Source: an uncultured Novosphingobium sp. (lineage in GTDB: Bacteria > Pseudomonadota > Alphaproteobacteria > Sphingomonadales > Sphingomonadaceae). Taken from it: a stretch of DNA of 64,000 nucleotides. Below the pieces are notes generated by a model. It did not search any database, had not been told where the DNA came from, and worked only from the letters and a program-made list of their open reading frames with translations. The stretch covers positions 1,740 through 65,739 of the forward strand of contig CAZKAX010000003.1 in NCBI GenBank assembly GCA_964550775.1, read 5' to 3'. Shown here one piece after another: positions 31,289 to 64,000 of the stretch. Positions within the stretch are counted from its first letter, which is position 1; the number at the start of each line of letters is the position of its first letter. A program made the position numbers and the translations under genes.

Positions 31289-33019
31289 TCATCCCACCAG
31301 CGCCGCTGCGTCGAGGGCGTAGAGCAAGTCGGAACCGGCCAGGGCAGCGGCCTTCAGGCCCTGCGCTTCGGGCACGATATGCTCGATGAAATAGCGCGCA
31401 ATGACCGGCTTGGTGACGGCGAGGGCCCCTTCCGCCGCATCGACCTGCCGCAGCAGCTGCCACCCGGCAACCGCGACCGAGCACATCGTGCAGAACGGGA
31501 CGCTGCCGGCCAGCTTGTCGTCCAGGCTGGCATCGCTGGCCATCCAGCGCTCCACGGCGATGCAGTCCTCGGCCAGCGCCTTCAGCGCCGGGGCGCGCTC
31601 ACCCGCTCCGGCCGCGACATCGGCCAGCAGGGCGTTCAGCACATCGCCGCCCTCGTAGCCCAGCTTGCGGGTGACGAGGTCGGCGGCCTGAATGCCGTTG
31701 GTGCCTTCATAAATCGGGGTGATGCGGGCATCGCGGTAATGCTGGGCCGCGCCAGTTTCCTCGACAAAGCCCATGCCGCCGTGGATCTGCACACCCAGGC
31801 TGGCCACTTCGCAGCCGATGTCGGTGCCCCAGGCCTTGATCATCGGCACCAGACAGTCGGCCCGCGCCTGCGCGCCGGGCAGGCCCAGCGTTCCGCGATC
31901 GACCTGGCCGGCGGTGTAGTACAGCAGCGCCCGCGCGCCTTCGGTCAGCGCGCGCATCCGCAGCAGCATGCGCCGCACGTCGGGATGCTCGACAATCGCG
32001 ACCGGCGCCTTGCTGGCCGAGCCGGCCCGCGCCGACTGGACGCGTTCGCGCCCATAGTACTGCGCCTGTTGCAGCGCCCGTTCGGCGATCTGCACGCCCT
32101 GGTTGCCAACGTTGATCCGGGCGGAGTTCATCATCGTGAACATTGCCTTCAGCCCGCCGTTCTCGTGCCCGACCAGTTCGCCGATGCACTCGTCATTGTC
32201 GCCAAAGCTCATCACGCAGGTGGGCGATGCGTTAATGCCCAGCTTGTGCTCGATGGACACGCAGCGCACGTCGTTGCGGCCGCCCAGCGTGCCATCGGCG
32301 GCAACGTGGAACTTCGGCACGATGAACAGCGAGATGCCCCGGCTGCCCTCCGGCGCGCCCGGCGTGCGGGCCAGCACCAGGTGGACGATATTACCCGCCA
32401 GGTCATGCTCACCCCAGGTGATATAGATCTTGGTGCCCTTGATCCGGTAACGCCCCGCATGTTCACCTTCGGTAATGGGGGTGGCGGTAGTGCGCAGTGC
32501 GCCAACGTCCGATCCGGCCTGCGGTTCGGTCAGGTTCATCGTGCCGGACCATTCACCGCTGATCAGCTTTTGCAGGTAGAGCGCCTTTTGCGCCGCGCTG
32601 CCGTGGTGGGTCAGCGCCTCGATCGCGCCGACGGTGAGCATCGGCAGCAGGCCGAACGCCATGTTGGCCGCGCCCAGGTTCTCGATCACGTTGGCCGACA
32701 GGGTAAAGGGCAGGCCCTGACCGCCGAATTCGGCATCGCCGGAAATGGCGTTCCAGCCCTGCTCGACATAGCCGCGATAGGCTTCGGCAAAGCCGGCCGG
32801 TAACGTGACGGTGCCATTGGCCAGCACTGCGCCCTCGACATCGCCCACGCGGTTGAGCGGTGCCCACTCCCCGGCCGCGAATGCGCCGATTCCCTGGGCA
32901 ATGGCTTCGACCACGTCGGGGCTGGCGGCGGCAAAGCGTTCATGAGCAGCGATCTCGTCGATCCCGGCGTTGACCTTGATCGCCAGAACCTGTTCGGCGG
33001 TGGGAACAGTGAATTCCAT
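31289..33019 (-). CDS. Acyl-CoA dehydrogenase (long, DmdC/FadE-like subfamily)
   Basis: GTMNLTEPQAGSD, GTKIYIT, EHKLGI, QIHGGMGF and IYEGTNGIQ motifs. Confidence 0.93.
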   Translation of the reverse strand: MEFTVPTAEQVLAIKVNAGIDEIAAHERFAAASPDVVEAIAQGIGAFAAGEWAPLNRVGDVEGAVLANGTVTLPAGFAEAYRGYVEQGWNAISGDAEFGGQGLPFTLSANVIENLGAANMAFGLLPMLTVGAIEALTHHGSAAQKALYLQKLISGEWSGTMNLTEPQAGSDVGALRTTATPITEGEHAGRYRIKGTKIYITWGEHDLAGNIVHLVLARTPGAPEGSRGISLFIVPKFHVAADGTLGGRNDVRCVSIEHKLGINASPTCVMSFGDNDECIGELVGHENGGLKAMFTMMNSARINVGNQGVQIAERALQQAQYYGRERVQSARAGSASKAPVAIVEHPDVRRMLLRMRALTEGARALLYYTAGQVDRGTLGLPGAQARADCLVPMIKAWGTDIGCEVASLGVQIHGGMGFVEETGAAQHYRDARITPIYEGTNGIQAADLVTRKLGYEGGDVLNALLADVAAGAGERAPALKALAEDCIAVERWMASDASLDDKLAGSVPFCTMCSVAVAGWQLLRQVDAAEGALAVTKPVIARYFIEHIVPEAQGLKAAALAGSDLLYALDAAALVG

Positions 33020-33120
33020 GATCTCTTTCGGGCAGGACAAATCGAATGGGCCTCGATATTTCGCGGCCTTGTTCGGATTTACGCGTGATTATGTCGCATA
33101 ACACTAAATGTGTACAGGGC

Positions 33121-33142
33121 GTCCGACCAGTTACGGTCGGAC
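33121..33142. terminator. Stem-loop GTCCGACC-N6-GGTCGGAC downstream of the TBDR-led operon
   Basis: Perfect 8-bp stem in the intergenic region; no strong U-tract. Confidence 0.4.
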
Positions 33143-33169
33143 ACCCGGTTTAACAGCATTGCGACACTG

Positions 33170-33532
33170 TCAGTTTTTGATCAATTCCTCGCAGATGCTT
33201 TCAATCGGCGGCTCGTTCTCGGTCAATGCCTCCATCGCCTGCATCGGCCCGCGCATGACGCGCAGAATATACTCCCGGGTCATGTCGCTGCGTTCCGCGG
33301 CAGCATCCCCGGTCGGCACGTAAGCCTCAATGTCAGCGAGTGAAAGCGTGCCATTGGCAGCGAGCAGGCGCTCCACCGTGTCGAGCCGCTGGCGCATGAC
33401 GGACACTTCGCCAACCAGCGCAAGCAAGATCGAATAGATCTCCTCGTTCTGGGGATCGGCAAAATAGGCTGGGCGCTTACCCTTGGGCTTGCGGTTGGCT
33501 AGGACCATCCAGTCCAGATTTGCTTCGGTCAT
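33170..33532 (-). CDS. Conserved-looking hypothetical protein coupled to the methyltransferase
   Basis: 120 aa helical protein (KGKRPAYF...LALVGEVSVMRQRLDTVERLL); ATGA overlap with the upstream gene. Confidence 0.75.
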   Translation of the reverse strand: MTEANLDWMVLANRKPKGKRPAYFADPQNEEIYSILLALVGEVSVMRQRLDTVERLLAANGTLSLADIEAYVPTGDAAAERSDMTREYILRVMRGPMQAMEALTENEPPIESICEELIKN

Positions 33533-34743
33533 TTCGGTGCACCTCCCTTCCAGGCACCATAGGCGTGCCAGGCCGCAGCCCGGCCGTGGTCCTCGGTTTC
33601 GTCGGTGGCAGCTTCGGGGAAGATCGCCCGGTCTGCCACGGCCTTGACGGCAGCCACAAACAGATCATCCTTGCCAAAACCGGCGTCGACCATCTGCTGC
33701 TTCAGATCCAGGCCGTGCATGGCAGACCAGAACGGTTCATTGTTGTTGAACGCATCCCAATCACGGATGAACTGCTCGTAAAGCGGCATTTCCGGGGAGT
33801 ATTGTGGCTGCTCAACGTGGAGCATCAGCCCGTGCGGCGCCAACACCCTGAAGCCTTCGCGAATGATCCTGGGCAGCGCCTTCCCGCTCAGTTCATGCAG
33901 GAACATCGTCGTCTGCACCCAGTCGAAATGGCCATCGCTCCACCGCGAGAGGTCTTCGCCATTATGCTGGATAAAGGTGATGTTCTTGGCCCCCAGGGCC
34001 TTTGCGCGAGCGTGGCCATAGCGCAGCGAGGCCGCGGCCGTGTCGATCGCTATAAATTCGGTTTCCGGAAACGCGAGCGCCAGCGGAACGACGTTGTGGC
34101 CAATAGTGCAGCCGATATCCAGAACGCGGCGCGGCTTCCAGTTGGGATAGTTCCGCCGCAGCCATTCCACTACGGCCTGCCCGCCGCCATCAGAGAGCCC
34201 GCCCAGCGCGCCCGCAGTCGTCGCAAAAATCCCGCAATCGTAGTTAGCACCGGCCGAAACGTCGCCCGGACGCTCTTCACCATGGTAACAGCCCGGCATG
34301 CAGTGAATATCCACTGCCGATTGATACCGGGGCACTTCGACAGTCGGGTCGAGCTGCAAATTCGGACTGTCAGCGTTCAGATCCCTTGCCCGCGCGTCAA
34401 GCTCGTCGATCTGGCGAAGCACCACCGCGCGTCCGTTCTGCTGCCGCATTTCCATCGTGTTGCGCTTGGAAGCGGACCACAACTGATGGAAGGGATCGCG
34501 GTTCATGGCATGGCGGATTTCGAACCGGTCCTTGGGATCGCGCCCCACGTTCTTGCGAAATTCCGGGAGAACGCGGCGCTCATAAACCAATTTATTCCCA
34601 GGACCCATGGCCGAGGAAAGAAATTTATTCATGTGCGTTATGAAATCAAATCGTGCAGCTTCATCTAGCGTGCTTTCCGGAAACATTTTATGGCGCGTTA
34701 CGGCGCGATAAGGCGGAACTTTATGCCCTGCGGTCTTATTCAT
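33529..34743 (-). CDS. Class I SAM-dependent methyltransferase-fold protein with a long N-terminal domain
   Basis: RVLDIGCTIG, IAIDT, FDWV..TMFLHE and FRVLAPHG motifs. Confidence 0.85.
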   Translation of the reverse strand: MNKTAGHKVPPYRAVTRHKMFPESTLDEAARFDFITHMNKFLSSAMGPGNKLVYERRVLPEFRKNVGRDPKDRFEIRHAMNRDPFHQLWSASKRNTMEMRQQNGRAVVLRQIDELDARARDLNADSPNLQLDPTVEVPRYQSAVDIHCMPGCYHGEERPGDVSAGANYDCGIFATTAGALGGLSDGGGQAVVEWLRRNYPNWKPRRVLDIGCTIGHNVVPLALAFPETEFIAIDTAAASLRYGHARAKALGAKNITFIQHNGEDLSRWSDGHFDWVQTTMFLHELSGKALPRIIREGFRVLAPHGLMLHVEQPQYSPEMPLYEQFIRDWDAFNNNEPFWSAMHGLDLKQQMVDAGFGKDDLFVAAVKAVADRAIFPEAATDETEDHGRAAAWHAYGAWKGGAPK

Positions 34744-35894
34744 ACGACCCCTTCCTTGATCATATTGTTGATCGATTCTTCCTGAATCCGCTGAAAGAAT
34801 TGCCTGTCGGGAATTACTATTTCGTTGTTCTGGATCAAACTGTCAGCGGGATGGGGCGATTTCCCTGCATAAACAGCGGCAAAAAGCTCCAGTCGCTGGC
34901 GCGCCAGAAAATTCGTCATCGCCGGCTTACGCCGTGCCGCGCGCAGCGCGCCAAGATCGATTTCGGCAAAGGCGGTAAAGGTTTCGCGCGAATTTGATTC
35001 CGCCAGAACCCGGCCCTTGAAATCCACCACCATGCTGTTCCCGTCGCCCGATGCCACGGGCAGGCTAGACAGTTCGATGCCGGCGGTGTTGCTGGAAACG
35101 ACGTAAGCCATGTTTTCCTGCGCGCGGGCGCGCTTCGCAATGGCTTTAGGCGTATCGATGGGAGAGCCGATCTCCGACGAACTGTGCACAAAGATCTCGG
35201 CTCCGCGCAAGGCCATGGCGCGCGCGATTTCCGGGTACAGGATCTCTTCCGACGCGATTGCCGCCAAATTGCCGATTTCGGTGCGGGCAACCGGGAACAC
35301 GCCGTCGATTCCATAGATGTCGAGATACTTCGACCAGACATCATGGGGCGTCGGCGCGAACATCGAATTGAGCCGCCGATAGCGCAGCACCACGTCACCA
35401 GAGGGATCGATGACAAAGCTTGTCTGGAAGTAGAGTCCCGGAAAGTGCCGGTCGACTTCATAGGCGTTGCCGGCAATGAACATTCCAAGGCGCTGGGCCA
35501 TCGCCCCCATCGCTTCGTATTCAGGCCCGTCAATCTCCAGCGCGGCCAGGTCTGCAAAATCGGGGATCGATATCCGTCCCGGATAACTGGTCAGCACATA
35601 TTCCGGCAGAACCGCCAGCTTGACCGGAGAACCGGCATATTGCTGGATGAAAATGCTGGCCGAGCGAATCTTCGGCTCCATCGATGCAATGGTCCCAAGC
35701 ATCTGCTGGCGCGCGGCTGCCTTATCGGGCGCTCGTTCGACCGATTGGGCGGCCAACTGCATCGCCACTGCTGCATAGGTTTTTTCGTCAGCCATTTTCC
35801 GTTGCTTTCGTTCGCTGGCAAATGCCGGCGCAATCCCATCGATCATCATTCCGGAGGTCGCACCCGCCAGAAAATGCCTGCGCGCGACCTCCAT
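34740..35894 (-). CDS. Carbon-nitrogen hydrolase (nitrilase-fold) protein with Tat-like signal and atypical triad
   Basis: AGGAGA RBS; ARRHFL signal; VLPEY, YRRLN and GNLAAIASEEILYPE...GAEI motifs. Confidence 0.85.
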   Translation of the reverse strand: MEVARRHFLAGATSGMMIDGIAPAFASERKQRKMADEKTYAAVAMQLAAQSVERAPDKAAARQQMLGTIASMEPKIRSASIFIQQYAGSPVKLAVLPEYVLTSYPGRISIPDFADLAALEIDGPEYEAMGAMAQRLGMFIAGNAYEVDRHFPGLYFQTSFVIDPSGDVVLRYRRLNSMFAPTPHDVWSKYLDIYGIDGVFPVARTEIGNLAAIASEEILYPEIARAMALRGAEIFVHSSSEIGSPIDTPKAIAKRARAQENMAYVVSSNTAGIELSSLPVASGDGNSMVVDFKGRVLAESNSRETFTAFAEIDLGALRAARRKPAMTNFLARQRLELFAAVYAGKSPHPADSLIQNNEIVIPDRQFFQRIQEESINNMIKEGVV

Positions 35895-35904: not shown

Positions 35905-37455
35905 CTAAAGTCCCAGAGAGCCGGGATTCATGATGCCACGCGGATCGACCGCAGCCTTGAGAGCGACAAGCAATGCATCCGCAGCCGGAGCCAGGCTGTC
36001 GCGATAACGATAGGTCCGTCCGATCTGGAAATGCGCAGCATTGTGCGCAAAGAAGACATCAACAATCGCGCACTTCATTTCCTGCACGAACGCCCAGATT
36101 TCCGGATCATGGGGGTAACTTTCCAGCTTCTTGAGGTGGGCCGGTTCAACCGTGTTGTTGATCAGCGGATTTCGCGCATCGAACCAGTACAGGCACGGCT
36201 CGATCACTACACCCGATCCACCCACCGCGGCAATCAGCGTGCCGTGCGTAACGCCGAACCGTTCTATGCGGTCGGCGTTTGCATCGAACAGCTCGACCAC
36301 TGCCTTGTAGCAGGCCTGCGCACGGCTGTGCGGAACCAGCCCGTGGATTGGCGCCCAGCGTTCGCCCTGGGCGCCAAGCATCATGTTCAGCGGGCCGAAC
36401 GGGTTGGCGCGGATGATCTTGGGAATGGTGTTTTCCACTTCCGAACCGCCGTGCCGTGCCACGATCTCGCGCGCCTGGGCGATGTCGGCATCGGCTGCCT
36501 GCTGGATGCCGGCTTCGGCCAGAACGTGCATCGAGAAGCTGGCTTCATCGATGAAGCTGCGCCCTGCGGCCACCACTTTGACGCCTTCCTTCAGGGCCTT
36601 CAGGACCGAGCCCTGCTTCTTCATCATGCCGACCAGCTGCTTGGCATCGCTCGCCAGGCTATCGCGCTGCATCCGGATCGCGTTGAGGCGCGGATCGAAG
36701 CCGAAGCATTCAGTGGCGATTCCCGCGCGCTCGATCTCGCCCATTGCGGCCAGATATGCGTCCGCATCGGTGAAGGTAAAGCTGGCATAACCGTGGCAGC
36801 GCGCTTCGGGCACCATGCGCAGCGTGATCGTGGCCTTGATGCCCAGCGCGCCAGTATCGGCCAAGAACAGACCTGTCAGGTCAGGGCCGTAAGGGCGGGT
36901 GTGTTCGCTTCCGGTCTTGAGGACAGTGCCGTCTGCCAGTACGACTTCCATCGCCACGCAGCTTTGCGCGGCGGTGCCATAGCGGCCGGTGCCCCAGAAA
37001 ATCCCGTTCTGGCTCATCCCGCCGCCGACAGTGGCATGAATGCCCGACAACGTGCCCCAGAACGGAGTGCGCAGGCCAAGTGGACGCAAGGCTTCATGCA
37101 GTGCCGCCCACGTGCACCCGGCCTCCACCGTCACAGTCATGTCCGTTTCATTGATATCGAGAATGCGGTTCATAGTCGCCGTGTCGAACACGACTGCCCC
37201 CGGCTGGTCGACCGTATAGCCGCCGGTGTAGCTCATGCCGCCACCGCGCGGCACCACCACCAGCCTCCGATCGCTGGCCACCTTCACAGCTGCGGCAAGC
37301 GAGGCGGTGTCAGCCGGATGGACAACTGCGCAAAGATCAGCCCCGCGCGCGAAAATGTCGTGCGCGAACAGGTCCAGCGTGACCGGATCGTTCGATACAC
37401 GCGCACCGCCAGCCGCAAGGGCCTGGATCAGATCGAGTTCAGCAAGGGTGGTCAT
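35905..37455 (-). CDS. FAD-binding oxidoreductase (VAO/PCMH, FAD_binding_4 family)
   Basis: PRGGGMSYTGG, VEAG, ATVGG, G.LGI and DPRGIMNPG motifs. Confidence 0.9.
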   Translation of the reverse strand: MTTLAELDLIQALAAGGARVSNDPVTLDLFAHDIFARGADLCAVVHPADTASLAAAVKVASDRRLVVVPRGGGMSYTGGYTVDQPGAVVFDTATMNRILDINETDMTVTVEAGCTWAALHEALRPLGLRTPFWGTLSGIHATVGGGMSQNGIFWGTGRYGTAAQSCVAMEVVLADGTVLKTGSEHTRPYGPDLTGLFLADTGALGIKATITLRMVPEARCHGYASFTFTDADAYLAAMGEIERAGIATECFGFDPRLNAIRMQRDSLASDAKQLVGMMKKQGSVLKALKEGVKVVAAGRSFIDEASFSMHVLAEAGIQQAADADIAQAREIVARHGGSEVENTIPKIIRANPFGPLNMMLGAQGERWAPIHGLVPHSRAQACYKAVVELFDANADRIERFGVTHGTLIAAVGGSGVVIEPCLYWFDARNPLINNTVEPAHLKKLESYPHDPEIWAFVQEMKCAIVDVFFAHNAAHFQIGRTYRYRDSLAPAADALLVALKAAVDPRGIMNPGSLGL

Positions 37456-37485: not shown

Positions 37486-38781
37486 TTAAGCTGCAGTGCC
37501 GGTAGCGCGTGCGGCATCGTCATCGAACGAGCTTGGGTAACGCCCCAGCAGCAGCAACATTGCCCCGCCGCCGATGAAACCGAACATCGCCACAAGCAGC
37601 ACCGGATCATAAGAGCCCGTCACATCGCGAACGTAGGCATACAGAATAGATGAAAGCGCCGACGCAATCCCGAACGGCATGTACAGCATGCCGTAGATCT
37701 TGCCGTAATGCGCCATCCCGTAATAGCGCCCCGCCAGATAGGCGATCAGGTCCGCTTCCGCGCCGGCGGCAAAGCCAAGAAAAAATGCGGCCACCGCGGC
37801 GAGCGTAAAGGTGACATCGCCGCCAAGCAGAATGAGGCAAGTGATCGCCGGCAGGCACAGCAGGGGAAACGCCACAAAGCCCTGCCAGAAACGGTCGAGC
37901 AGCGCGCCAGTGATGACCCGGCCGGCAAAGATCCCGATGCCGAGCACGCCCATGATGCTGGCTGCCGATTGGGCGCTGATCCCGTCATCCATCAGGATTG
38001 CGGGCATGTTAATAAAAGCGCCGGAATAGCATCCTGCGACGATGCTGATCGAGATCCACATGACGTAGAAGCGGTAACCCCGCATCGCCCTGCCAAGGGT
38101 CACGCCCGTCAGCCGTCCATCGCTGTCACAGAGCGCCTGGGGCCGTTCCTCTGGCCGAGGTTCGCGAAAGAACAGCCACGCCACCGGCAGTGCAACCAGC
38201 AGCGGTAACAGCGCCATCCCCGCAAACATCGTGCGCCACCCAAACTGAGCGATGCTCCACACGGCCAGTTTTGGCACGAACAGGGCCGCCAGGCTGGTGC
38301 CCATCAGAAGAATGCCAAGGGCCAGCCCGCGATGACGGAAAAACCACAAGTTCACGGCCCTGCTCCATGTCACTGGGGTCGAGCCAATACCCACCAAGCC
38401 GATCACGACCCAAAGACCATAATAGAAATACAGTGTGGCCGAAGTGTTCGCGGTGGGCGTCAGCGCGACCGCGGCGAGGGCCAGGGCGAACCCGAATACC
38501 GAACCGAGCGCAACCTTGCGCACGCCGTAACGATCCGCGAGCCAGCCGAACACAGGGGCCATGAGCGAGGCGATCAGGCCATAGATCGTGGCCGGGAGAA
38601 TGATTTCAGTCCGGCTCCAGCCGAACTCCGCCGACAGCGGTTCGACCGTGAAACCGATGAGATTGAATGGAATGGGAGATGCGCCGCAGGTTACACCAAT
38701 CATGCCAGCCAACAGCACTTTCCAGCCGTTTGCGAATTCTCGGTCGGCTGACCCGCTGGCTGCTTGCGGTAATGCTGTCAT
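37486..38781 (-). CDS. MFS transporter
   Basis: About 12 TM segments; GWLADRYGVRKV motif A and GALLDRF. Confidence 0.92.
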   Translation of the reverse strand: MTALPQAASGSADREFANGWKVLLAGMIGVTCGASPIPFNLIGFTVEPLSAEFGWSRTEIILPATIYGLIASLMAPVFGWLADRYGVRKVALGSVFGFALALAAVALTPTANTSATLYFYYGLWVVIGLVGIGSTPVTWSRAVNLWFFRHRGLALGILLMGTSLAALFVPKLAVWSIAQFGWRTMFAGMALLPLLVALPVAWLFFREPRPEERPQALCDSDGRLTGVTLGRAMRGYRFYVMWISISIVAGCYSGAFINMPAILMDDGISAQSAASIMGVLGIGIFAGRVITGALLDRFWQGFVAFPLLCLPAITCLILLGGDVTFTLAAVAAFFLGFAAGAEADLIAYLAGRYYGMAHYGKIYGMLYMPFGIASALSSILYAYVRDVTGSYDPVLLVAMFGFIGGGAMLLLLGRYPSSFDDDAARATGTAA

Positions 38782-41399: not shown

Positions 41400-41414
41400 T
41401 ATTTGTCCGTACAA
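41400..41414. promoter_or_regulatory. Putative GntR/HutC operator TATTTGTCCGTACAA
   Basis: Near-palindrome upstream of the TBDR; identical over 15 bp to the reverse complement of 59789-59803. Confidence 0.7.
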
Positions 41415-41515
41415 GTTTGCACAGCGCCACAGCTTATGCAAGGGAGGCAATGTCAATCGTTGGAAAAACGCACGCGGCATACCGTTTGCCGCTGCCAAGC
41501 GAAGGGGGTTCCGAA

Positions 41516-43168: not shown

Positions 43169-43202
43169 AAGCGACAGAAACCGAATAAGAAGGAAAAAGC
43201 CT

Positions 43203-46161: not shown

Positions 46162-46166
46162 GGCCG

Positions 46167-53169: not shown

Positions 53170-53181
53170 AAGGTTTTCACC

Positions 53182-53487
53182 ATGCGCATCATAGTGCTTT
53201 TCAATCTCAAGGATGGCGTTGATCCGGCGGCTTACGAGGCCTGGGCACGCGGGTCCGACATCCCCGCCGTCAACGCGCTGGGTTCGGTGATCCGCTTCAC
53301 GGTCCACAAGTCGCTCGGCCTGTTCGGTTCGGGCGAAGCCGCGCCTTATCAGTATGTCGAAGTGATCGACATTGCCGACATGGAAGGCTTCGTCGGCGAC
53401 ATCTCGACCGCCGCGTTCCAGGAAATGGCCAAGCCGTTCCAGGACTTTGCCGACAATCCGCAGTTCATTCTCACGGAAAACTTGTGA
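53182..53487 (+). CDS. RedY/HapK-like small dimeric alpha-beta barrel protein
   Basis: IIVLFNLKDGVDPAAYEAWAR..D.P...L.SV..F......PYQYVEVIDI pattern; 101 aa. Confidence 0.75.
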   Translation: MRIIVLFNLKDGVDPAAYEAWARGSDIPAVNALGSVIRFTVHKSLGLFGSGEAAPYQYVEVIDIADMEGFVGDISTAAFQEMAKPFQDFADNPQFILTENL

Positions 53488-55153: not shown

Positions 55154-55917
55154 CCCTGCGACTGGAACGGCAGGGTGCGGTGGCTCACCTGCTGATCGAC
55201 CGCGCAGACAAGCGCAATGCCTTCAACCAGGAAATGTGGGACTTGTTCCCGCAACTTCTGGCCCAGGCGATGGCCGATCCGGCAGTCAATGTGCTGGTGG
55301 TGCGCGCGGCCAAACCGGACAGCGCATTCTGCGCAGGTGCGGACATTGGTGAATTTGCCACCGGCGCACGCGATCGGGAATGGCGCGCCGCCAATCAGGC
55401 CGCGATCAATCGCGTACAGCATGAACTGGCCCGCGCGGCAAAGCCGACCATTGCCTTCATCGAGGGCGATTGCGTGGGCGGCGGCTGCGGCATTGCACTG
55501 GCCTGCGATTTCCGCGTCGCTGGTCCAAAGGCGCGCTTTGGCATCACCCCGGCCAAACTGGGGCTGGTCTATCCCTTGCACGACACCAAGCTGCTGGTCG
55601 ACCTGGTCGGTCCGGCCCAGGCCAAGCGCATCCTGTTCACCGGTACATTGCTGACCGCGGCAGAGGCGCTCGCGATCGGCATGGTAACGCTCCTCGACAC
55701 CGATCCTGCCGCCGCACTTGACCGCATCACAAGTGAACTTGTGGCGGTTTCGGGTCACAGCCAGCGCATGTCCAAGGTGATGGTCCAGCGCATTCTGGAT
55801 GGACAGGTCGCTGACGACGATACCACCCGCGCTGAATTCGCCGCCGCTTTCGACGGTGATGACTTTGCAGAAGGCGTCAGTGCGTTTCTGGCAAAGCGGC
55901 CACCAGTCTTCCGATGA
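55150..55917 (+). CDS. Crotonase (enoyl-CoA hydratase/isomerase) family protein
   Basis: KRNA, FCAGADI, GGGCGIALACD and TPAKLG motifs. Confidence 0.9.
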   Translation: MTLRLERQGAVAHLLIDRADKRNAFNQEMWDLFPQLLAQAMADPAVNVLVVRAAKPDSAFCAGADIGEFATGARDREWRAANQAAINRVQHELARAAKPTIAFIEGDCVGGGCGIALACDFRVAGPKARFGITPAKLGLVYPLHDTKLLVDLVGPAQAKRILFTGTLLTAAEALAIGMVTLLDTDPAAALDRITSELVAVSGHSQRMSKVMVQRILDGQVADDDTTRAEFAAAFDGDDFAEGVSAFLAKRPPVFR

Positions 55918-56828
55918 GCGCGCCCTTTGCAGACCCGCCGCGCCACGGCCAGATCGTGGGCGGCCTGTCCGTGACCCCTGATCTTGACGCGGCGATCCTG
56001 GACTACCGCGATGTCCTTGGCCTGGAACTGGTCGAAGCCTCGCGGATTAACGACAGACTTGCCGCTGCCTGGGGCGCGCCCGCCAGCGCCGGTTCGCGCA
56101 TGGCCGTTCTTCGACCGCAAAGCGGGTCACCCTGCGCGCTTCGTCTGGTCGAACAGCCCGATTGCCCGGCTTTCGTCCCGACCACGAGCCACGGCTGGGC
56201 CGCCTTCGAACTTACCGTCCAGGACGTGTTCGGCTGGCCGGACCGGCTGGACGGGTCCGGCTTTTCGATCCAGGGCTTGCCGCGCGAATTGGAAGGAATG
56301 GCCTATTTCATTCCGATGCAGGTATTGGGCCGCGGCCGGGAAATGGTCTATCTGAACGAAGTGCGCGCGGACATGCCGAACTGTGATCTGCCCCGCGCAC
56401 AGTCATCGGTGGATCATCTGTTCATCGCCATCCTGGCCACGCCCGATCGGGCGGCCTCGGTTCAATGGTATGAGCGGCATCTTTGCTTGCAGGCTGCCGA
56501 CACATTCAATCTGACCTACAGGATGATCAATCAGGCCTTCGACCTGCCGGACAGTTACCGCACTGATCTGACGATGGTCCAGAACGGGCGGATGACGATC
56601 TTCGAGGTGGATGGATACCCTCCTCAGGCCAAGGCCCGCCCACAGCACGATGCTATGCTTCCGCCTGGCAACGCATTGGTCAGCATTGGCGTCGCCAATC
56701 TTGATGCACTGGACATCGAATGGCTTGCACCGCCGGCTACCCATGCCGGTTTCCCCTACAATGGCCGCCGCGCCGCAACCCTGCGGGGGCCCAGCGGCGA
56801 ACTACTGGAGTGTATTGAATATGGCTGA
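55914..56828 (+). CDS. VOC/glyoxalase-superfamily protein (two domains)
   Basis: PDLDAAI..Y..VLG and PDRAASVQWY repeats; ends GPSGELLE.IE. Confidence 0.75.
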   Translation: MSAPFADPPRHGQIVGGLSVTPDLDAAILDYRDVLGLELVEASRINDRLAAAWGAPASAGSRMAVLRPQSGSPCALRLVEQPDCPAFVPTTSHGWAAFELTVQDVFGWPDRLDGSGFSIQGLPRELEGMAYFIPMQVLGRGREMVYLNEVRADMPNCDLPRAQSSVDHLFIAILATPDRAASVQWYERHLCLQAADTFNLTYRMINQAFDLPDSYRTDLTMVQNGRMTIFEVDGYPPQAKARPQHDAMLPPGNALVSIGVANLDALDIEWLAPPATHAGFPYNGRRAATLRGPSGELLECIEYG

Positions 56829-57594
56829 CACAACAAAGTTCATGCCGCCTGCCGGATCCCGTATTGCCGTGCTGGGAGCCTGCGGCGGGATCGGCGCAGA
56901 CGTCGTTCGGGCGCTGGTCGATGGTGGCTGCACGGTGATTGCCATGGACTTGCCCGGTTCGCTGGCCGAAGCGCCCGGCCCTGCACACCATGCCATCGCC
57001 TTTGATGGGCGTGACCCGGAATCGATCTCCTCGGCGTTTGCACAAATGGCGCAGATCAGCCCCCGGCTCGACGGCCTTGTCATCGCTTCGGGTTTTGCTG
57101 GCCCACGCCAACCGATCGATCAGTGGGAGATCGATCAGATCGACGATGTGCTGGTTGGCAACCTGCGGTTGATGACGCTGTGCCTTCGCGCCGCCGTGCC
57201 GCTGCTGAAGCATGACGGCACCGCAAGCGTGGTGATGTTGACAAGCGACATGGCCTACATCCCGCAGGCAGGTTATGCCCCTTATGTGGCAGCCAAAGCC
57301 GGGATGGTCGCGATGGGCCAATCCGTTGCGCGTGAGTTGGCCCCCGGAGTGCGGATCAACTTCGTGTCGCCCGGCGCGGTGGACACTCCCTTCCTGCGGG
57401 GTGGCCGAGGGCGGACGCTGGACCCGGCTGCACCGCTCCGGTTCGACATGGACGCATATCTCGCGCAGATCCCGCTTGCGCGGATGGCGACGGCCAGCGA
57501 TGTCACAGGCCCGATCCTGTTCCTACTTGGCCCAGGATCAAGCTATATGACCGGAAATGTGCTGCACGTCAGCGGCGGGGCTTACATGGGTTAG
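56821..57594 (+). CDS. SDR-family oxidoreductase
   Basis: GACGGIG, YVAAK and RIN.VSPG.VDT motifs. Confidence 0.9.
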   Translation: MADTTKFMPPAGSRIAVLGACGGIGADVVRALVDGGCTVIAMDLPGSLAEAPGPAHHAIAFDGRDPESISSAFAQMAQISPRLDGLVIASGFAGPRQPIDQWEIDQIDDVLVGNLRLMTLCLRAAVPLLKHDGTASVVMLTSDMAYIPQAGYAPYVAAKAGMVAMGQSVARELAPGVRINFVSPGAVDTPFLRGGRGRTLDPAAPLRFDMDAYLAQIPLARMATASDVTGPILFLLGPGSSYMTGNVLHVSGGAYMG

Positions 57595-57801: not shown

Positions 57802-58536
57802 TCAGATAACGGCCTCGCCCGGGGCCAGGCTGTTGTCCATGTCCCGCCAGACACGCCAGTTGCCATCATCGCCCCGCTTGTAGACCAACAGGGTCCGCCC
57901 CGCGATCTGGTAGGCGTCACGGTCCGATGGGGCAATTGACATCACAAAGCGCAGCACCTGATAGCCAAACGCGCCTTCAACCTCGATTGACTCGATCGTT
58001 GATTCCACCTCGACCCGGTTTCCGGACCGGGCATGACGGGCAAAGTGATCGATCACCGCATCGACCCCTTTCAGCAACGGCGCGGCGTTGGGGCTGACCA
58101 GGCAGTCCGGCTCGTAAAGATCGCGCATCGCCACCAGGTCGCCAGAGGCATAACTCGACTTCCAACGCTCGCCTGCCTCCACGATTCCGGCGATGGCGGC
58201 GGCGCGGTTATGCCCTGCCGCATCTCTGCCTACAGCCGGAGCGTCCGGGCTTTCCAATGCCAGAACCTTGCAGCGGGCAATACCCTCGCGCAGGGGGCGG
58301 ATGCGGGCGTATTCCTCACTTTCCCAGAACGCCCGCAGCGCGGCCATGTCAGTCCACTGGGAGACGACGACCGAAGCGCCGTCCAGACCATCGCCTTCCA
58401 GCCCAAGTGCGCCCGGCGCGCGCAGCAGGTATCGACCGCCCATCCGGGTCACCAACGCGGCGGCTACCCTTGCATAGCCGCCCATGAAAGCCTCACGATC
58501 ATCAACGTGGGCAATGACAACAAGATAAGCAGCCAT
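57802..58536 (-). CDS. DUF1330-like plus NTF2/DUF4440-like two-domain protein
   Basis: N-half AYLVV...GGRYL.R...LEG...FWESEEY..IRPLR; C-half GDLVAMRDLY..D...G..AV...LLVYKR..DGNWRV.RD. Confidence 0.8.
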   Translation of the reverse strand: MAAYLVVIAHVDDREAFMGGYARVAAALVTRMGGRYLLRAPGALGLEGDGLDGASVVVSQWTDMAALRAFWESEEYARIRPLREGIARCKVLALESPDAPAVGRDAAGHNRAAAIAGIVEAGERWKSSYASGDLVAMRDLYEPDCLVSPNAAPLLKGVDAVIDHFARHARSGNRVEVESTIESIEVEGAFGYQVLRFVMSIAPSDRDAYQIAGRTLLVYKRGDDGNWRVWRDMDNSLAPGEAVI

Positions 58537-58588
58537 GCAGCTTGCTCCTAAGAACGATCAACCGGACAGTTTGAGGATGGCGCGCGGA

Positions 58589-59731
58589 TTACGTGCGCGG
58601 CCAGCGGGCCTTGTCCTGAAGGTACCTTCCCGCATCAAGCGCGTCGGTAGGCTGATAGGCGTCGAACAGGTTCGGGCCATACTGCGAGCGATATTGCTCA
58701 AATACCGGCAGAAACAGTTCGGTGTGAACCACCGGCTGGCGATGGCGCGTACGGAAGGCTCCGATCGGAATCCGTTGGCTGACCAGAGTTTCGAACGCCA
58801 GCTTTGCGCTTGCCAGTTCGCCCCCATCCGGCCCATAGATTGCGCTGCCACCGCCGCCGGTATCGGCAAAATAGCGGGTATTTTCGGGTGAGGCAGCATT
58901 GTTGGCCACCGCTGTATACACCCCGTTGTACAGCGATGTTGCCTGGATATCGAGCGGCGTGAAACCACCCGTTGCCGTCCGGAGGATCAGTTCCGCCCCC
59001 TTCATCGCAAAGGCGCGGAACAGCTCTGGTTCTTTCTGCGTGGAGCTCGTCGCGATGTTGCCCAGCGGCGTCCGGGTGACCGGCAGGACCGCATCCGGAC
59101 CGTACATTTCCACATAGCGGTCCAGCACATCGTATATGGTGGTGGTGAACAGCTCTTTGCGTCCCCCGAAGAAGCCCTTCAGGTTCCGCGCCTTCCAGTG
59201 CCGGTCGACGATTTCCCCCTTGTCATTCATGATGACCGTGATCGACAGTAGCGACTTCGGCCAGGCTGGATCGCGAACGTACGAGCCGAACACCAGCCAG
59301 CACCCATATTCGCGGGCCTTGCGCGCCAGCAGTTCCGTTTCCGGGCCGGGCAGCTCAATCGCCACCTTTCGCGCATCGTCAAGGTTCCAGCCATGATAGT
59401 AGCCGGTGACCGGGAATTCATGGAAGAACAGGATATCGTGCCCGACGAGCCCGTTGGCACGATCGATAAGGTCCGCCATGTGCTGGACGTTGGCAAAACG
59501 CGACTGCTTGAGGTTCGCCAGCTCGACCGGCACCACCCGCGACTGGACCACGCCGAGCATGATGACATCCTTGGCCAGCGCAACGGTTTCATAGCTGCCA
59601 TCCGGACGCATCGACAACGGCGCTGGTGCACCTGCGGCTGTCGCAGCCTTCGCACTGGAGCCAACTCCTGCAGCAGCTGCCGTTGTCAGGGCCGCGCAGG
59701 CTCCCATCATGCCACGTCGCGAAATGCTCAT
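58589..59731 (-). CDS. Second nitrilase-fold protein with Tat signal and no Cys nucleophile
   Basis: SRRGMM signal; FHEFP, HWKARN and TPLGNIATSSTQKEPE...GAEL motifs. Confidence 0.85.
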   Translation of the reverse strand: MSISRRGMMGACAALTTAAAAGVGSSAKAATAAGAPAPLSMRPDGSYETVALAKDVIMLGVVQSRVVPVELANLKQSRFANVQHMADLIDRANGLVGHDILFFHEFPVTGYYHGWNLDDARKVAIELPGPETELLARKAREYGCWLVFGSYVRDPAWPKSLLSITVIMNDKGEIVDRHWKARNLKGFFGGRKELFTTTIYDVLDRYVEMYGPDAVLPVTRTPLGNIATSSTQKEPELFRAFAMKGAELILRTATGGFTPLDIQATSLYNGVYTAVANNAASPENTRYFADTGGGGSAIYGPDGGELASAKLAFETLVSQRIPIGAFRTRHRQPVVHTELFLPVFEQYRSQYGPNLFDAYQPTDALDAGRYLQDKARWPRT

Positions 59732-59781: not shown

Positions 59782-59803
59782 GGTCAATTTGTACGGACAA
59801 ATA
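59782..59803 (-). promoter_or_regulatory. Putative operator TATTTGTCCGTACAA abutting a TTGACC -35-like box
   Basis: The minus strand reads TATTTGTCCGTACAAATTGACC upstream of the second nitrilase-fold gene. Confidence 0.7.
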
Positions 59804-59902: not shown

Positions 59903-60595
59903 TCAGATCGGCTTCACCGCCCCCAGGAAGCCAGCGGCACCAATGGTGATCCAGTAGATCACGGCCACGATCCGGGCTGAGCGGATGAGATCGGCCAGAC
60001 GTGCCTCGGCAGCGGCGTCTGGTCCTTTCGCAAGCCGGGCGAAAATCCCCGGCCACTCGTGCAGATAATATCGCAGGACAAGCCCGACGATCAGGCTTAG
60101 CCCGAAAACGATCAGCTTTGCCGAATACCATTGCTGTCCATCGCCTGCTTCAAACGGCCCCATGCCCAGCAAGGATGTGATGCCGGTGCCGATGACGGCG
60201 GGGATAGCCAGATAGCGCGACCAGTCCTCCAACTTGCCGAACACGGTATCCTTGCGCCGCATCTTGTCGCGGAAGGCCAGCAGGGTGACGATCACCCAGG
60301 CCACCCAACCCAGCCAGACCGCGACGAGGAAATTGCCGCCATAGGGTTGCACACCCCACAGGTGCCCCATGTGCAGGCCCAGCGGCAACAGCGAGATGAT
60401 ACCGATCCGCGAGACAACGTCGATGCGGAAGACCGTGTCGAGATGGCGCACTCGCTCTGCTACGGGCAGCGCTGGGTCGACAACCTTGTAGGATGTCTGG
60501 AAGACGGCCCATTCCCCGCCCAGCCAATAAACCATCGCCAGAATGTGCGCGAACCGCAGCAGAGCCAATTCGTAGACTTCGAGGAATCCACTCAA
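59903..60595 (-). CDS. Multi-pass membrane protein of unknown function (paralog of 41516-42199)
   Basis: AHILAMVYWLG...D.V.R...FLGAVKPI; TTG start with an AAGGAG RBS. Confidence 0.8.
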   Translation of the reverse strand: MSGFLEVYELALLRFAHILAMVYWLGGEWAVFQTSYKVVDPALPVAERVRHLDTVFRIDVVSRIGIISLLPLGLHMGHLWGVQPYGGNFLVAVWLGWVAWVIVTLLAFRDKMRRKDTVFGKLEDWSRYLAIPAVIGTGITSLLGMGPFEAGDGQQWYSAKLIVFGLSLIVGLVLRYYLHEWPGIFARLAKGPDAAAEARLADLIRSARIVAVIYWITIGAAGFLGAVKPI

Positions 60596-60651
60596 GGAAC
60601 TTCTCCTTACTTTCCCGCTAGAATGTCAGGCTAAAGCGTGTCTAATCGCGA

Positions 60652-60861
60652 CTAATCGGATTTTGAGAGCATCGAACGCAGCGCCAGCGCCACCACTGCG
60701 GGGCGCATCAGCTTACCGGCCAGGCGAACCAGTTCCTTTCCGCCGATTTCCACCGTGCAAGGCATCGCATTGGCGACGCCGGCGAGGATGAGGCGCCCAT
60801 CCTCAACCCGGCTTTCGCGCACTTCAACGCCCAGCTTGATCGCGGGAGTCTTGACCAGCAT
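60652..60861 (-). CDS. Small hypothetical protein coupled to the flavoprotein gene
   Basis: 69 aa; ATG 1 bp after the upstream stop. Confidence 0.6.
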   Translation of the reverse strand: MLVKTPAIKLGVEVRESRVEDGRLILAGVANAMPCTVEIGGKELVRLAGKLMRPAVVALALRSMLSKSD

Positions 60862-60862
60862 C

Positions 60863-62392
60863 TCAGGCCTGCCCTGCCGAGGTCGGCAGCACCGAAGGTT
60901 CCAGGGCCAGAACGCTGCGCGCTGCGCCGCGACCGGTAATCATCGCTTCGGTCAGGTACGATCCGTTCTGATAGAGGTCAGAAATGAACGAGCCGAGTTC
61001 ACCTGCTTCGTAAAGCCGCGCAATCGGCTTGTCGTCATGACCGAAAACCACACCGTTCATATTGCGGCGCGCACCGCCGCCGGTACAGACAATGGCGGGC
61101 GTGATCGGCAGGGCATAGAACGGGCCGTTGGCCACCGGCAGCAGGGTTTCCGCATTTCGGCCGAAAACCTCGTCGTTGCCGGCAGCGCAACTCGCGTTGT
61201 AACGCGCGACCTGTTCCTCAAGAACGGCCACTTCGATGCCAATCTTGGCGGCCAGTTCAGCAATCGTGTCGGCTTTGTGGATGAGGCCGGAAGCAATCTC
61301 GGCGCTGTTGTCCTCGCTCCATTCTTCTGCAACGACAACCGCGCTCCAGGTCATGACCTCCAGCACCAGCTTGCCTGCCTGCCGGGTGGTTTCGTCAAAG
61401 ATCATGTGGACCGGGTGGGCCACGTTGAGCGGCACATCAACGAAACGACCGTGCTTCTTTTCCTTGTAGTGGGTCAACTGCAGCTCGTTCGCCTCGTTGT
61501 AGAAACGACGCCCTTCGCTGTCGACGTCGAACCAGCTGAACGCCGGCAGCATGAAATTGCGCAAGTAGCAGGTCTGCTGATGCGGCTGGCGGATACCCGG
61601 CCAGATACCGCCCGACTGCCCCTGATTGCGCAGATGCCACATGTCCGCGCCAGCCTTCTGCATGATACGCAGGCCATCCCCCGTGTTATACGGTGTCCCC
61701 AGCGGCACAACGTTCGACAGGCCATAATAGTCGCGCTGCATCTGGGGCGACGCTTCATAGCCCCCGATTGCCACAATCACGCCGCGTTCGGCGCGGATCG
61801 CCTTGCGCTGACCGTTCTGTTCGATCCACGCGCCGAAAACTTCCAACGTGTCCGGGTCCTGGATGAGGTCCACAAGTCGGCTATCAAACCAGACGGGCAC
61901 GTTCCGCTTTTCCACGTTAGCCTTCAGGGCCAACCAGACGCCTGACGGGATCGGCAGGATCGTGGAGGTGTAGGCCACGGCATCGCGCGCGCCCAGTTCC
62001 GGGAATTCCAGTACGGCGTCGCGCTCGGTGAAACCCGTGCCGCGCAGGAATTCCTGACCAGCGCCGGCTGCAATCTGCTGAATCCAAGGCTCAAGGTTGA
62101 CCATCCGGTCGGCCCAGTCGTCGAGCAGTTCCTCGCTGACGGGATTGGCAGCGCTCATCTTTCGCTGATAATCCTTCAGGGCGTCCTTGTTCTTTGAAAT
62201 CAGCAGCGACTGCCCGGAAACGCGGCAATTACCGCCGGCAAATTCCTGCGGCGCCTTTTCCACGATCAGGATGCGCGCATCGGGAGCAGTGTCACGAGCC
62301 TCGATGGCGGCAGACGCACCCGCGCAACCGTAACCGCAGATCAACACATCGACGACTTCGTCCCACTGGGAAACGCTGTTCAGACTAGCCAT
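60863..62392 (-). CDS. FAD-dependent oxidoreductase (FAD_binding_2; fumarate reductase/ketosteroid dehydrogenase-like)
   Basis: DVLICGYGCAG, EK....GG, NTGDG, GPFYA, T.GG and LYEAGE motifs. Confidence 0.9.
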   Translation of the reverse strand: MASLNSVSQWDEVVDVLICGYGCAGASAAIEARDTAPDARILIVEKAPQEFAGGNCRVSGQSLLISKNKDALKDYQRKMSAANPVSEELLDDWADRMVNLEPWIQQIAAGAGQEFLRGTGFTERDAVLEFPELGARDAVAYTSTILPIPSGVWLALKANVEKRNVPVWFDSRLVDLIQDPDTLEVFGAWIEQNGQRKAIRAERGVIVAIGGYEASPQMQRDYYGLSNVVPLGTPYNTGDGLRIMQKAGADMWHLRNQGQSGGIWPGIRQPHQQTCYLRNFMLPAFSWFDVDSEGRRFYNEANELQLTHYKEKKHGRFVDVPLNVAHPVHMIFDETTRQAGKLVLEVMTWSAVVVAEEWSEDNSAEIASGLIHKADTIAELAAKIGIEVAVLEEQVARYNASCAAGNDEVFGRNAETLLPVANGPFYALPITPAIVCTGGGARRNMNGVVFGHDDKPIARLYEAGELGSFISDLYQNGSYLTEAMITGRGAARSVLALEPSVLPTSAGQA

Positions 62393-62452
62393 GGTTCAAT
62401 ACTCCCAAGAAAGGCATTTGACCCAAGCTTGTGCGGTACACTTCGATCGAAC

Positions 62453-62488
62453 CAGCAACCGGTTGTCATTTTGTACAACTTATGGTTG
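62453..62488. promoter_or_regulatory. Tandem CA(A/G)C-N5-GTTG boxes, putative LysR binding sites
   Basis: CAGC-AACCG-GTTG (62453-62465) and CAAC-TTATG-GTTG (62476-62488) in the divergent lysR/flavoprotein gap. Confidence 0.45.
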
Positions 62489-62499
62489 ATGTCTTGGCT

Positions 62500-63378
62500 A
62501 TGGAACTGCGCCAACTTTCCCACTTCCTTGCCGTCGTCGACGCCGGCAGCCTGACACTTGCCGCCGATCGCGTGGGGTTAACTCAGCAGGCCCTGTCCAA
62601 AAGCCTTGCCAGGCTGGAACTGGAACTGGGCGGAAAACTGTTCGAGCGTGCAGCGCGCGGCATGGTCCTGTCCCGGCTAGGCGATGCCATTGCCGAACAC
62701 GCCCGGCAGGTTCTGGCAGATGCTGGCCGCCTCAGACATGCAGCCAGTGCGGAACTAGGCTTGCAGCGCGGTCGATTGGTTGTGGGGCTAAGCCCGATTG
62801 CCGCATCCAGCCACCTGGGCAGCCGGGTCATGCGCTTTGCCGAGCGTTATCCGCGCGTGCGCATCGATGTCGAAAGCGGGATCGATCGGGAATTTGTCGC
62901 CAAGCTTCATCGCGGAGAGATCGATGTAGCCATTTCATCGCAAACTGCGGAGCAGACGGACAGCGTACTGCTTGAACAGCTCGCAGTTGAGCGATGGGGC
63001 GTTACCAGCGCTGCGGACAATACCCTGCTCTCGAACGCCAGCGGCCTGGCCGATCTCGCAGAGGCTCAATGGATCATAGGCCGCAACACGGCGTTATTGG
63101 ATGCGCAGATCGGAGAAGCGTTCGTCAACGCGGGGATGGCCCCTCCGCGTCCCGGTATCATGACAACATCGGTCTTGTTCACGCTGCAGGCGCTGCGCCG
63201 GTCCCGATGCCTCGCCATTCTGCCGCATTCGCTGTGCGAAGACCTGCCGGACCTGCTGTGGCGCGACATGGGTAATGGTGCCTGGACAACGCCGATATTT
63301 CTGATGCGGCGCAAACGCGCCTTGATCGACGATCTGATCAAGGCGCTATTGATTGAACTGGGCAGCCAGACCGCCTGA
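62500..63378 (+). CDS. LysR-family transcriptional regulator
   Basis: MELRQLSHFLAVVDAGSLTLAA...TQQALSKSLARLE...LFER. Confidence 0.95.
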   Translation: MELRQLSHFLAVVDAGSLTLAADRVGLTQQALSKSLARLELELGGKLFERAARGMVLSRLGDAIAEHARQVLADAGRLRHAASAELGLQRGRLVVGLSPIAASSHLGSRVMRFAERYPRVRIDVESGIDREFVAKLHRGEIDVAISSQTAEQTDSVLLEQLAVERWGVTSAADNTLLSNASGLADLAEAQWIIGRNTALLDAQIGEAFVNAGMAPPRPGIMTTSVLFTLQALRRSRCLAILPHSLCEDLPDLLWRDMGNGAWTTPIFLMRRKRALIDDLIKALLIELGSQTA

Positions 63379-63404
63379 GCGCGGCTGCTGCCCGGATCAA
63401 TTCC

Positions 63405-63710
63405 TTACCAGGGCTTGCCGCCCACCCAACTGCCGGCTTTGACGCCGATCCGGCTGATCTCCACCGTGTCCCAGATACCCGCCTTGTAATAGGGGTCTGC
63501 TTCGATGAAGGCCTGCGCATCGGCCCGGTCGGACGCGCTGACAATGACCAGCGACCCGACGAAACCGCCATCTTCGCCGTGAAGCGGGCAGGCCAGCGCA
63601 ACCCGGTCGAACACTTCGTCAAGGTGAGCCAGATGCTCCTTCAACCCGGCCATGCGGGTCGGTTTCGTGTCGGCCTTGTCACGGCAAACGATCGCAAAGA
63701 ATTCAGACAT
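63405..63710 (-). CDS. YciI-family protein
   Basis: R.....EHLAHL...P......GSL......A..F...DPY..AG pattern. Confidence 0.88.
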   Translation of the reverse strand: MSEFFAIVCRDKADTKPTRMAGLKEHLAHLDEVFDRVALACPLHGEDGGFVGSLVIVSASDRADAQAFIEADPYYKAGIWDTVEISRIGVKAGSWVGGKPW

Positions 63711-63746
63711 GATAGCTCCTGGTGGTTGAAATCGAGGACGACCGCT

Positions 63747-64000
63747 TCATCGGGACGAACAGGGAAAACCCAGAACGCCTGGGTTCATCAGGTTGTGCGG
63801 ATCGACTGCCAGCTTGATCGCGCGCAACAAGCCAGCCGGCTCATCCCGCAACGCGGGCATGAACGGATAGGTTCGTCCAATCTGGTTCGATGCCGCACCG
63901 TGCGCGCGAAACAGGTCCACCGTCATCGCCCGCAACCGCGCGACCAGTTCCCTTGCCGCAGGATTTGGCGCGGGTTCGTCCAAACGTGCTAGAGCTGCAG
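63747..64000 (-). CDS. C-terminus of a second VAO-type FAD oxidoreductase (5' end outside the window)
   Basis: AHGAASNQIGRTYP...IKLAVDPHNLMNPGVLG parallels the end of 35905-37455 (AHNAAHFQIGRTYR...LKAAVDPRGIMNPGSLG). Confidence 0.8.
   Translation of the reverse strand, partial: AALARLDEPAPNPAARELVARLRAMTVDLFRAHGAASNQIGRTYPFMPALRDEPAGLLRAIKLAVDPHNLMNPGVLGFPCSSR

Follow-up and report, generated by a model that had tools for sequence, protein, structure and literature searches.

A widespread catabolic island of an uncultured Novosphingobium and its possible link to tetrapyrrole breakdown

Described pathways and the island

Several described pathways share parts with the catabolic island considered here, which lies in a stretch of 64,000 nucleotides (the window) from an uncultured Novosphingobium sp. 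(assembly GCA_964550775.1, contig CAZKAX010000003.1, positions 1,740 to 65,739) and runs past its end. The maleamate pathway of nicotinate and nicotine proceeds through NicX, NicD, NicF and NicE. Dimethylmaleate is broken down by the hydratase DmdAB and dimethylmalate lyase, and the known citraconate route leads through (R)-citramalyl-coenzyme A (CoA) to pyruvate. A five-gene cluster with families also found in the island oxidises methylsuccinate (PMC12290011), and a PuuE-family protein with a Glu-His-Trp triad is a characterised glutarimide/cyclic-imide hydrolase (PMC11424739). Haem and chlorophyll are documented to break down to maleimides, hematinic acid and propentdyopents, chlorophyll alone being made and degraded at a scale of 10^12 kg yearly (PMC7318184), and as of 2008 the bilin lyase homologues of non-photosynthetic organisms had yet to be characterised (PMC2327270).

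The lower steps of the island reuse known chemistry, while the combination and the upper steps match no pathway found. With the Nic pathway the island shares an isochorismatase-family amidase and, in some of its homologues, maleate-isomerase-like genes, but no NicX-type dioxygenase is assigned in it (the genome was not searched directly for NicX), and LeuCD with a CoA-dependent lyase would replace simple isomerisation. LeuCD, CaiB and an HMG-CoA-lyase-like enzyme in this copy recall the citraconate route, and in two homologous islands (G134 and G042) LeuCD adjoins an isocitrate-lyase/PEP-mutase-family gene, a second way of cutting the same bond that recalls DmdAB and dimethylmalate lyase. Compared with both routes, the context of the island is aerobic, fed by a TonB-dependent receptor and downstream of imide and amide hydrolases. 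The itaconate/methylsuccinate cluster of Pseudomonas and Cupriavidus (Ict, Ich, Ccl, Mcd, Msi; PMC12290011) shares CaiB, MaoC, CitE, acyl-CoA dehydrogenase and MmgE/PrpD with the central module, where all five family types are grouped together; in the island, however, CaiB and PrpD are duplicated, the NCBIfam equivalog cut-offs for Ccl/Ich are not reached (226 bits with the RipC model, cut-off 375; 238 bits with RipB, cut-off 340), and imidase, amidase, transport and uncharacterised genes surround the set. PuuE1, the best conserved of three PuuE-like proteins, has the Glu-His-Trp and second His of the PuuE-family allantoinase and imidase (PuuE 3cl6; BpIH, EC 3.5.2.16; PMC11424739), but lies below the allantoinase cut-off, lacks purine-pathway neighbours and is accompanied by two further diverged paralogues. 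Members of the T-type bilin lyases (CpcT/CpeT, PF06206) and of the RCCR family of the plant PAO/RCCR system (PF06405) occur within homologous islands, the RCCR-like genes adjoining Rieske oxygenases in G042; unlike in those systems, the CpcT-like proteins of the hosts look exported and the Rieske proteins match VanA_C rather than PaO, and both families are absent from this copy.

A full-text literature search, covering few subscription papers and no supplements, returned no description of this cluster or of any bacterial bilin-mineralising pathway, and no set of bacterial genes by which opened tetrapyrroles, or the maleimide fragments from them, are consumed. An initial annotation of the window had not recognised the combination as a characterised pathway, and the literature searched holds no matching one. 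The link it drew from HapK to prodiginine clusters found no backing, as the search gave unrelated work only. The accessible parts of PMC9863593 and PMC4609964 contain nothing bearing on the island.

Extent, conservation and regulation

The island is genuine and widespread, a catabolic regulon of about 46 genes over 49 kb that appears not to have been described. Its existence had been recognised in the initial annotation, but it is larger than was stated there: 17 further genes and two operator copies lie past the window, as far as an IS3 element with which the contig ends. Forty-seven genes served as queries, and about 46 remain after dropping a long acyl-CoA dehydrogenase (31289-33040), which adjoins the marker genes here; since it was found in none of 80 homologous loci, it is probably not a member of the system.

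The main marker is a class I SAM methyltransferase-fold protein (MTase), of which 2592 homologues were recognised among 7997 candidates scored; its motif matches an estimated 1300 or so stored GTDB stretches. MTase occurs in 19 of 150 Sphingomonadales genomes, and the second marker, PuuE2, in 26 of these and in 3 of 251 gammaproteobacterial genomes. The markers travel together, since 18 of the 19 MTase genomes and 24 of the 28 with the HMG-CoA-lyase-like gene (HMGL) are PuuE2-positive. Neighbours were counted in the best 80 MTase loci, each of at most 21 kb, so that distant genes are undercounted: the small partner orf120 recurs in 76, the MFS transporter in 55, a small barrel protein in 50, the nitrilase-fold protein CNH1 in 49, the oxidase FADox1 in 45, the isochorismatase in 43, PuuE2 in 42, LeuC in 35 and the TonB-dependent receptor in 34. 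Over longer distances, 33 of the 47 query genes recur in the closest syntenic relative (G101, 60 kb), 32 in a gammaproteobacterial genome (G151, 73 kb), and 31 and 30 in two genomes of another alphaproteobacterial order (G661 and G601), with fewer in G385 (19), G042 (14), G688 (11) and G212 (10). G151 holds two large island copies and eight methyltransferase paralogues in one genome (contigs C308, C204 and C167).

A palindromic operator, TTGTCCGGACAA, is present in five copies in this island. Three exact copies of TTGTMCGKACAA fall in the window: between the TonB-dependent receptor and the membrane protein gene TM4a (41403..41414), upstream of citE (42322..42333) and upstream of CNH2 (59789..59800). 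No shuffle out of 100 reached three, which bears out the earlier proposal of a repeated operator linking the genes; at two mismatches the signal is drowned in noise (27 of 100 shuffles). The whole genome has 10 sites at one mismatch or fewer, five of them on the contig of the window (C3), including the two past it, at 10239 and 16038 of locus L001 (C3:64500-83261), to which all coordinates beyond the window refer. Homologous loci hold 175 sites, spread over 65 of the 80, against 3-9 in five shuffles. The regions of G042 and G212 showed none of this form. The GntR-UTRA protein (47249..47986, minus strand) likely binds the operator and would be the likely repressor of all operons.

Proposed pathway and substrate

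It is quite probable, in our judgement, that the island degrades an N-heterocycle through imide and maleamate intermediates. From gene content, synteny, the operator, active-site motifs and co-occurrence we infer a route, conditional in every reaction and in its substrate, that would lead from a cyclic imide to a half-amide, a substituted maleate or succinate, a malate and finally pyruvate and an acyl-CoA. The same logic had been outlined in the initial annotation and is strengthened by genes past the window, namely the maleamate-amidase-like isochorismatase, PuuE2 and PuuE3, LeuCD and the HMG-CoA-lyase-like enzyme.

Uptake would rely on the TonB-dependent receptor; the exported proteins CNH1, CNH2 and DUF1838 (with CpcT-like proteins in homologues) would process the substrate in the periplasm before import by the MFS transporter. 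The FAD oxidases together with the VOC, cupin, HapK, YciI and DUF1330 proteins might then, in the least supported of the steps, split the rings apart oxidatively into maleimide or succinimide units. PuuE-type imidases would open the imide, and ammonia would be released by two enzymes, the amidase of the isochorismatase family and the one with the amidase signature. A substituted maleate could be hydrated by LeuCD and cleaved by CaiB3 and the HMG-CoA-lyase-like enzyme, and saturated units would pass to the methylsuccinate-type set of CaiB, acyl-CoA dehydrogenase, MaoC, CitE and MmgE/PrpD.

The active sites fit these assignments to differing degrees. PuuE1 retains the Glu-His-Trp triad and the second, catalytic His, and matches PuuE 3cl6 with an E value of 2.7e-59; the cut-off of the allantoinase PuuE equivalog TIGR03212 (424.6) is reached neither by PuuE1 (237 bits) nor by PuuE2 (102) or PuuE3 (92). 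The isochorismatase has an intact Asp/Lys/Cys triad (motifs at 42, 136 and 166), and in the PDB it is matched best by N-carbamoylsarcosine amidohydrolase and by the isochorismatase-family hydrolases 4l07/3ot4, which have a maleamate-amidase role. The amidase and LeuC motifs are intact as well.

As to the substrate, we lean slightly towards a tetrapyrrole origin, on evidence that comes from homologues of the island rather than from this copy. Linear tetrapyrroles or their fragments had been guessed in the initial annotation, with co-occurrence with tetrapyrrole genes as a check. That check was positive in homologues, with CpcT both co-occurring and physically linked and RCCR present in one homologous island; the guess finds no such backing in this copy, which has neither family. 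Among the 150 Sphingomonadales genomes, the CpcT family is found in 15 of the 26 PuuE2-positive and 1 of the 124 negative genomes, and the barrel in 11 and none, respectively, whereas the control LigA shows 6 of 26 against 46 of 124. Within one genus (24 genomes, six PuuE2-positive) all four CpcT genomes are among the six. In a forward test on a separate sample of 330 genomes of the phylum, the three CpcT genomes, from one family of another order, all carry PuuE2/3.

Physical linkage is seen in several islands. G661 has the gene order hapK-SDR-puuE1-cpcT-VOC-CMD-citE-maoC, in which cpcT overlaps the puuE1 orthologue by one base; in G601 a double-CpcT gene follows MTase-orf120, and CpcT also stands inside the islands of G042, G045 and G102. 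In G133 a single gene joins CpcT to a homologue of this island's barrel (hhalign 98.4%), and in G097 the fusion partner of CpcT is DUF1330. The G042 island, of about 80 kb, carries two RCCR-family genes over the cut-off, one of them divergent from a Rieske oxygenase, and two Rieske oxygenases in all; genes related to the latter occur in clusters of G002, G041 and G661.

A number of observations weigh against a tetrapyrrole substrate. No CpcT, RCCR or Rieske gene is assigned in this copy, and neither CpcT (PF06206) nor RCCR has a match in the host genome (G000, 3.58 Mb, 91.6% complete, the island ending at a contig end) or in its closest syntenic relative G101. RCCR was found in 1 of the 150 genomes of the order, in none of the 330 of the phylum sample or of five chosen genomes, and in no further copy among the retrieved loci. 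Eleven of the 26 marker-positive genomes lack CpcT, and in seven the barrel is missing as well; among the gammaproteobacteria, just one of the three with the marker has CpcT, on another contig, and CpcT is unlinked to the island in G025, G053 and G688. The sole CpcT-positive, PuuE2-negative genome, G111, is an assembly of 310 contigs, and co-occurrence P values overstate the association because the genomes are kin. With two queries, CpcT matched in only 1 of the 80 MTase loci. The CpcT-like proteins mostly have signal-peptide-like starts, unlike cytoplasmic lyases, and often stand beside flavin amine oxidases, and the G042 Rieske proteins match VanA_C and not PaO, with SxtDIOX/NdmA as closest PDB entries.

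The enzymes themselves add to these doubts. The step that would split the bridges between rings is assignable to no gene. PuuE2 and PuuE3, more diverged, have a deacetylase fold in which Glu and His are kept and the Trp position is altered, so that the PuuE triad is incomplete. Four C-N-acting families had been counted in the initial annotation, and all four are present, two of them with non-canonical active sites: instead of the nitrilase triad Glu-Lys-Cys, CNH1 has Glu-Arg-Ser and CNH2 Glu-Lys-Thr. Their C-N hydrolase activity is not assured, because the catalytic Cys is replaced by Ser or Thr and, in CNH1, Lys by Arg. The 171-residue barrel, modelled as a 10-stranded FABP-like barrel (predicted local distance difference test score, pLDDT, 93.5), is closest to BFA1/DUF3598 (Z 16.4/14.6), followed by spirocyclases (14.1), nitrobindins (about 13) and CpcS/CpeS (12.0; 3bdr, 4tq2). 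CpcS/CpeS is thus not its closest relative, it has no Pfam match and hence none to CpeS, and the fold alone is weak evidence for bilins.

The copy studied here may be a form for dealing with fragments, or one relying on DUF1838 and the barrel where others have CpcT. Taken together, the evidence tips modestly towards an island that imports linear tetrapyrroles or pyrrolic fragments and would open them by way of cyclic imides to branched dicarboxylic acids, cleaving these to pyruvate and acyl-CoA. A fuller scheme is more tentative: a widespread mobile system for mineralising bilins and chlorophyll catabolites, in which exported CpcT-like proteins might free bilins from chromopeptides, the Rieske/RCCR-like pairs of some hosts might open or reduce the pigment, and the serine-type nitrilase fold, the MTase-partner pair and PuuE imidases might feed methyl-alkyl-maleates into central metabolism.

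Some further matches around these families were not relied on, being weak: a chlorophyllase Pfam match in G042, a third bilin-reductase-like gene below cut-off and a haem-oxygenase-like fold in G002. In G025 and G053 (L151, L152) a CpcT-like gene stands alone, flanked by ssb and a PEP-CTERM gene, and in G002 and G041 (L016-L017, L116-L117) clusters with an MTase paralogue include a Rieske oxygenase, a molybdopterin dehydrogenase and an amine oxidase.

Other readings of the same genes have been weighed. A substituted pyridine-type substrate entering the same lower pathway is unlikely; ring cleavage would give an N-acyl-maleamate, on which PuuE2/3 would act as deformylase or deacetylase ahead of the amidase, LeuCD and the lyase. 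The deacetylase fold of PuuE2/3 would suit such a role, as would the kinship of the isochorismatase with 4l07/3ot4 and the maleate-isomerase-like genes and FAD monooxygenases of homologous loci, but none of the island genes was assigned to a pyridine hydroxylase family or to that of NicX-type dioxygenases (no genome-wide search for either was made), and the linked CpcT and RCCR genes would be left unexplained. The homarine operon (PMC13236597) differs in gene content, which rules out the homarine pathway itself.

It is also rather unlikely that the substrate is another N-containing natural product (pyrrole, lactam or indole alkaloids, or amines), with CpcT/CpcS-like barrels serving as general small-molecule catalysts. 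Flavin amine oxidases, DUF1330 and ALDH do stand repeatedly beside CpcT-like genes, spirocyclases match the barrel fold about as well as tetrapyrrole binders, and the presence of up to eight MTase paralogues per genome in several sub-clusters suggests a family of substrates; against this, two bilin-associated families, CpcT and RCCR/bilin reductase, converge in one island, and the methyl-branched dicarboxylate modules would fit the methyl/alkyl pattern of tetrapyrrole rings, itself established chemistry. A mosaic of independent small modules (methylsuccinate/itaconate, citraconate, amide scavenging) gathered on a mobile element appears improbable. Its mobile context (tra genes, IS21, Tn3, IS3), the rearrangement or splitting of modules between genomes and the isochorismatase-PuuE2-PuuE3 trio kept alone at a locus in some genomes would agree with it, whereas one operator stands ahead of different modules here and in distant taxa, 30-33 of 47 genes remain together across two classes, and the markers co-occur across genomes in the proportions given above.

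If the tetrapyrrole reading is right, the island would be an undescribed route for recycling opened haem, chlorophyll and phycobilin rings, and would name a sink for them that is testable in cultured strains, as named isolates are among the 80 loci. It would also give a context to DUF1838, DUF3598-like, DUF4437 and HapK proteins, to non-photosynthetic CpcT and RCCR homologues and to the Cys-less nitrilase fold. Even with a different substrate, it represents an abundant unassigned catabolic regulon.

Gene map and setting

Pfam and NCBIfam bear out the inventory of the initial annotation: TonB-dependent receptor, MFS, two twin-arginine nitrilase-fold proteins, FAD_binding_4 and FAD_binding_2 oxidoreductases, two acyl-CoA dehydrogenases, amidase, PuuE-like hydrolase, PaaK-like CoA ligase, CitE, MaoC, two CaiB, two MmgE/PrpD, HapK and the GntR-UTRA regulator. 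As stated there, no ring-hydroxylating dioxygenase is assigned, among 33 open reading frames scanned in 31-64 kb. The claim that the window lacks glycoside hydrolases needs the qualification that a lytic transglycosylase (21176-22027), the sole gene of this type seen, lies in the conjugation region.

On the minus strand, the island begins with orf120 (33170..33532; no Pfam match over cut-off), MTase (33529..34743), CNH1 (34740..35894), the FAD_binding_4 oxidase FADox1 (35905..37455), the MFS transporter (37486..38781) and the TonB-dependent receptor (38869..41370). The plus strand carries TM4a (41510..42199), the central module of CitE/Ccl-like lyase, MaoC/Ich-like hydratase, acyl-CoA dehydrogenase and two CaiB CoA transferases (42344..47240) and, after the regulator, an operon (48067..57594) of two MmgE/PrpD genes, PaaK-like CoA ligase, amidase, HapK, SDR, PuuE1, enoyl-CoA hydratase, VOC and SDR, closely packed with gaps of -8 to +12 bp. 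A DUF1330-SnoaL fusion and CNH2 follow on the minus strand (57802..59731), then an accessory block with no operator seen (59903..63710, minus strand) of TM4b (59903-60595), the FAD_binding_2 oxidoreductase and YciI, inside which a LysR gene is divergent (62431-63378, plus strand). The 3' end of the second FAD oxidase, FADox2, closes the window (63747..64000, minus strand) as the first of the 17 genes running past it.

In L001, the minus strand holds FADox2 (987-2579), TM4c (2573-3232), DUF1838 (3282-4121), CaiB3 (4208-5395), HMGL (5392-6324), LeuD (6321-6938), LeuC (6938-8347), the DUF3598-like barrel (8310-8825) and an alpha/beta hydrolase (from 8844). Beyond the fourth operator copy come isochorismatase (10316-10996), PuuE2 (10996-11889), PuuE3 (11886-12809), ALDH (12806-14242) and a zinc-type ADH (14239-15252), all on the plus strand, and a DUF3108-like gene on the minus strand (15272-15985). 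The fifth copy precedes TM4d (16093-16785) and a DUF4437 cupin (16887-17546), both on the plus strand. The cupin, at 219 residues, is shorter than its relatives (about 270) and ends at the IS3 element and contig end (16887-18762); the island may continue on another contig.

Positions 1-30544 of the window contain F-type conjugation genes (TraH, TraN, TrbC, TraC, TraV, TrbI-like, TraK, TraE and the lytic transglycosylase) and, after them, a helicase-domain gene, IS21 and a Tn3 transposase. GC content is 61.6% in the island, 65.8% in the tra region and 64.9% in the genome. The island markers were not found in two same-genus genomes searched, which fits mobile cargo. Near-identical DNA is present in bioreactor metagenome runs, which may be its source.

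Among the less familiar proteins, DUF1838 gave a single-sequence model of low confidence (pLDDT 35.9) with no usable match in the Atlas; profile comparison linked it neither to CpcT nor to the barrel, its gene neighbours on plasmids of Calothrix, Streptomyces and Novosphingobium gave no useful information, and neither it nor the barrel has a meaningful PDB sequence match. The four paralogous membrane proteins TM4a-d conserve His, Trp-Leu-Gly, Arg and Asp and show only a weak CopD match. HapK, YciI and DUF1330 are presumably small ferredoxin-like-fold proteins.

Variants of the island bring in other families. Two loci (L102, on plasmid pJE1, and L114) include hydantoinase/oxoprolinase A and B, members of a family that opens lactams at the expense of ATP. 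No cyanobacteria are named among the best 120 CNH homologues; in an actinobacterium, Nonomuraea, the genes ALDH-barrel-CNH1 form a module of three next to ABC transporters of the NMT1 type (L107 18264-20916). G042 encodes two long nitrilase-family proteins of about 550 residues with Cys motifs (L142 16057-17757 and L143 16020-17660), each with a protein of 248-249 residues within two genes downstream, one of these with a weak bilin-reductase match. A second HapK-like gene, 39% identical, lies elsewhere in the host genome (C8 52537-52836).

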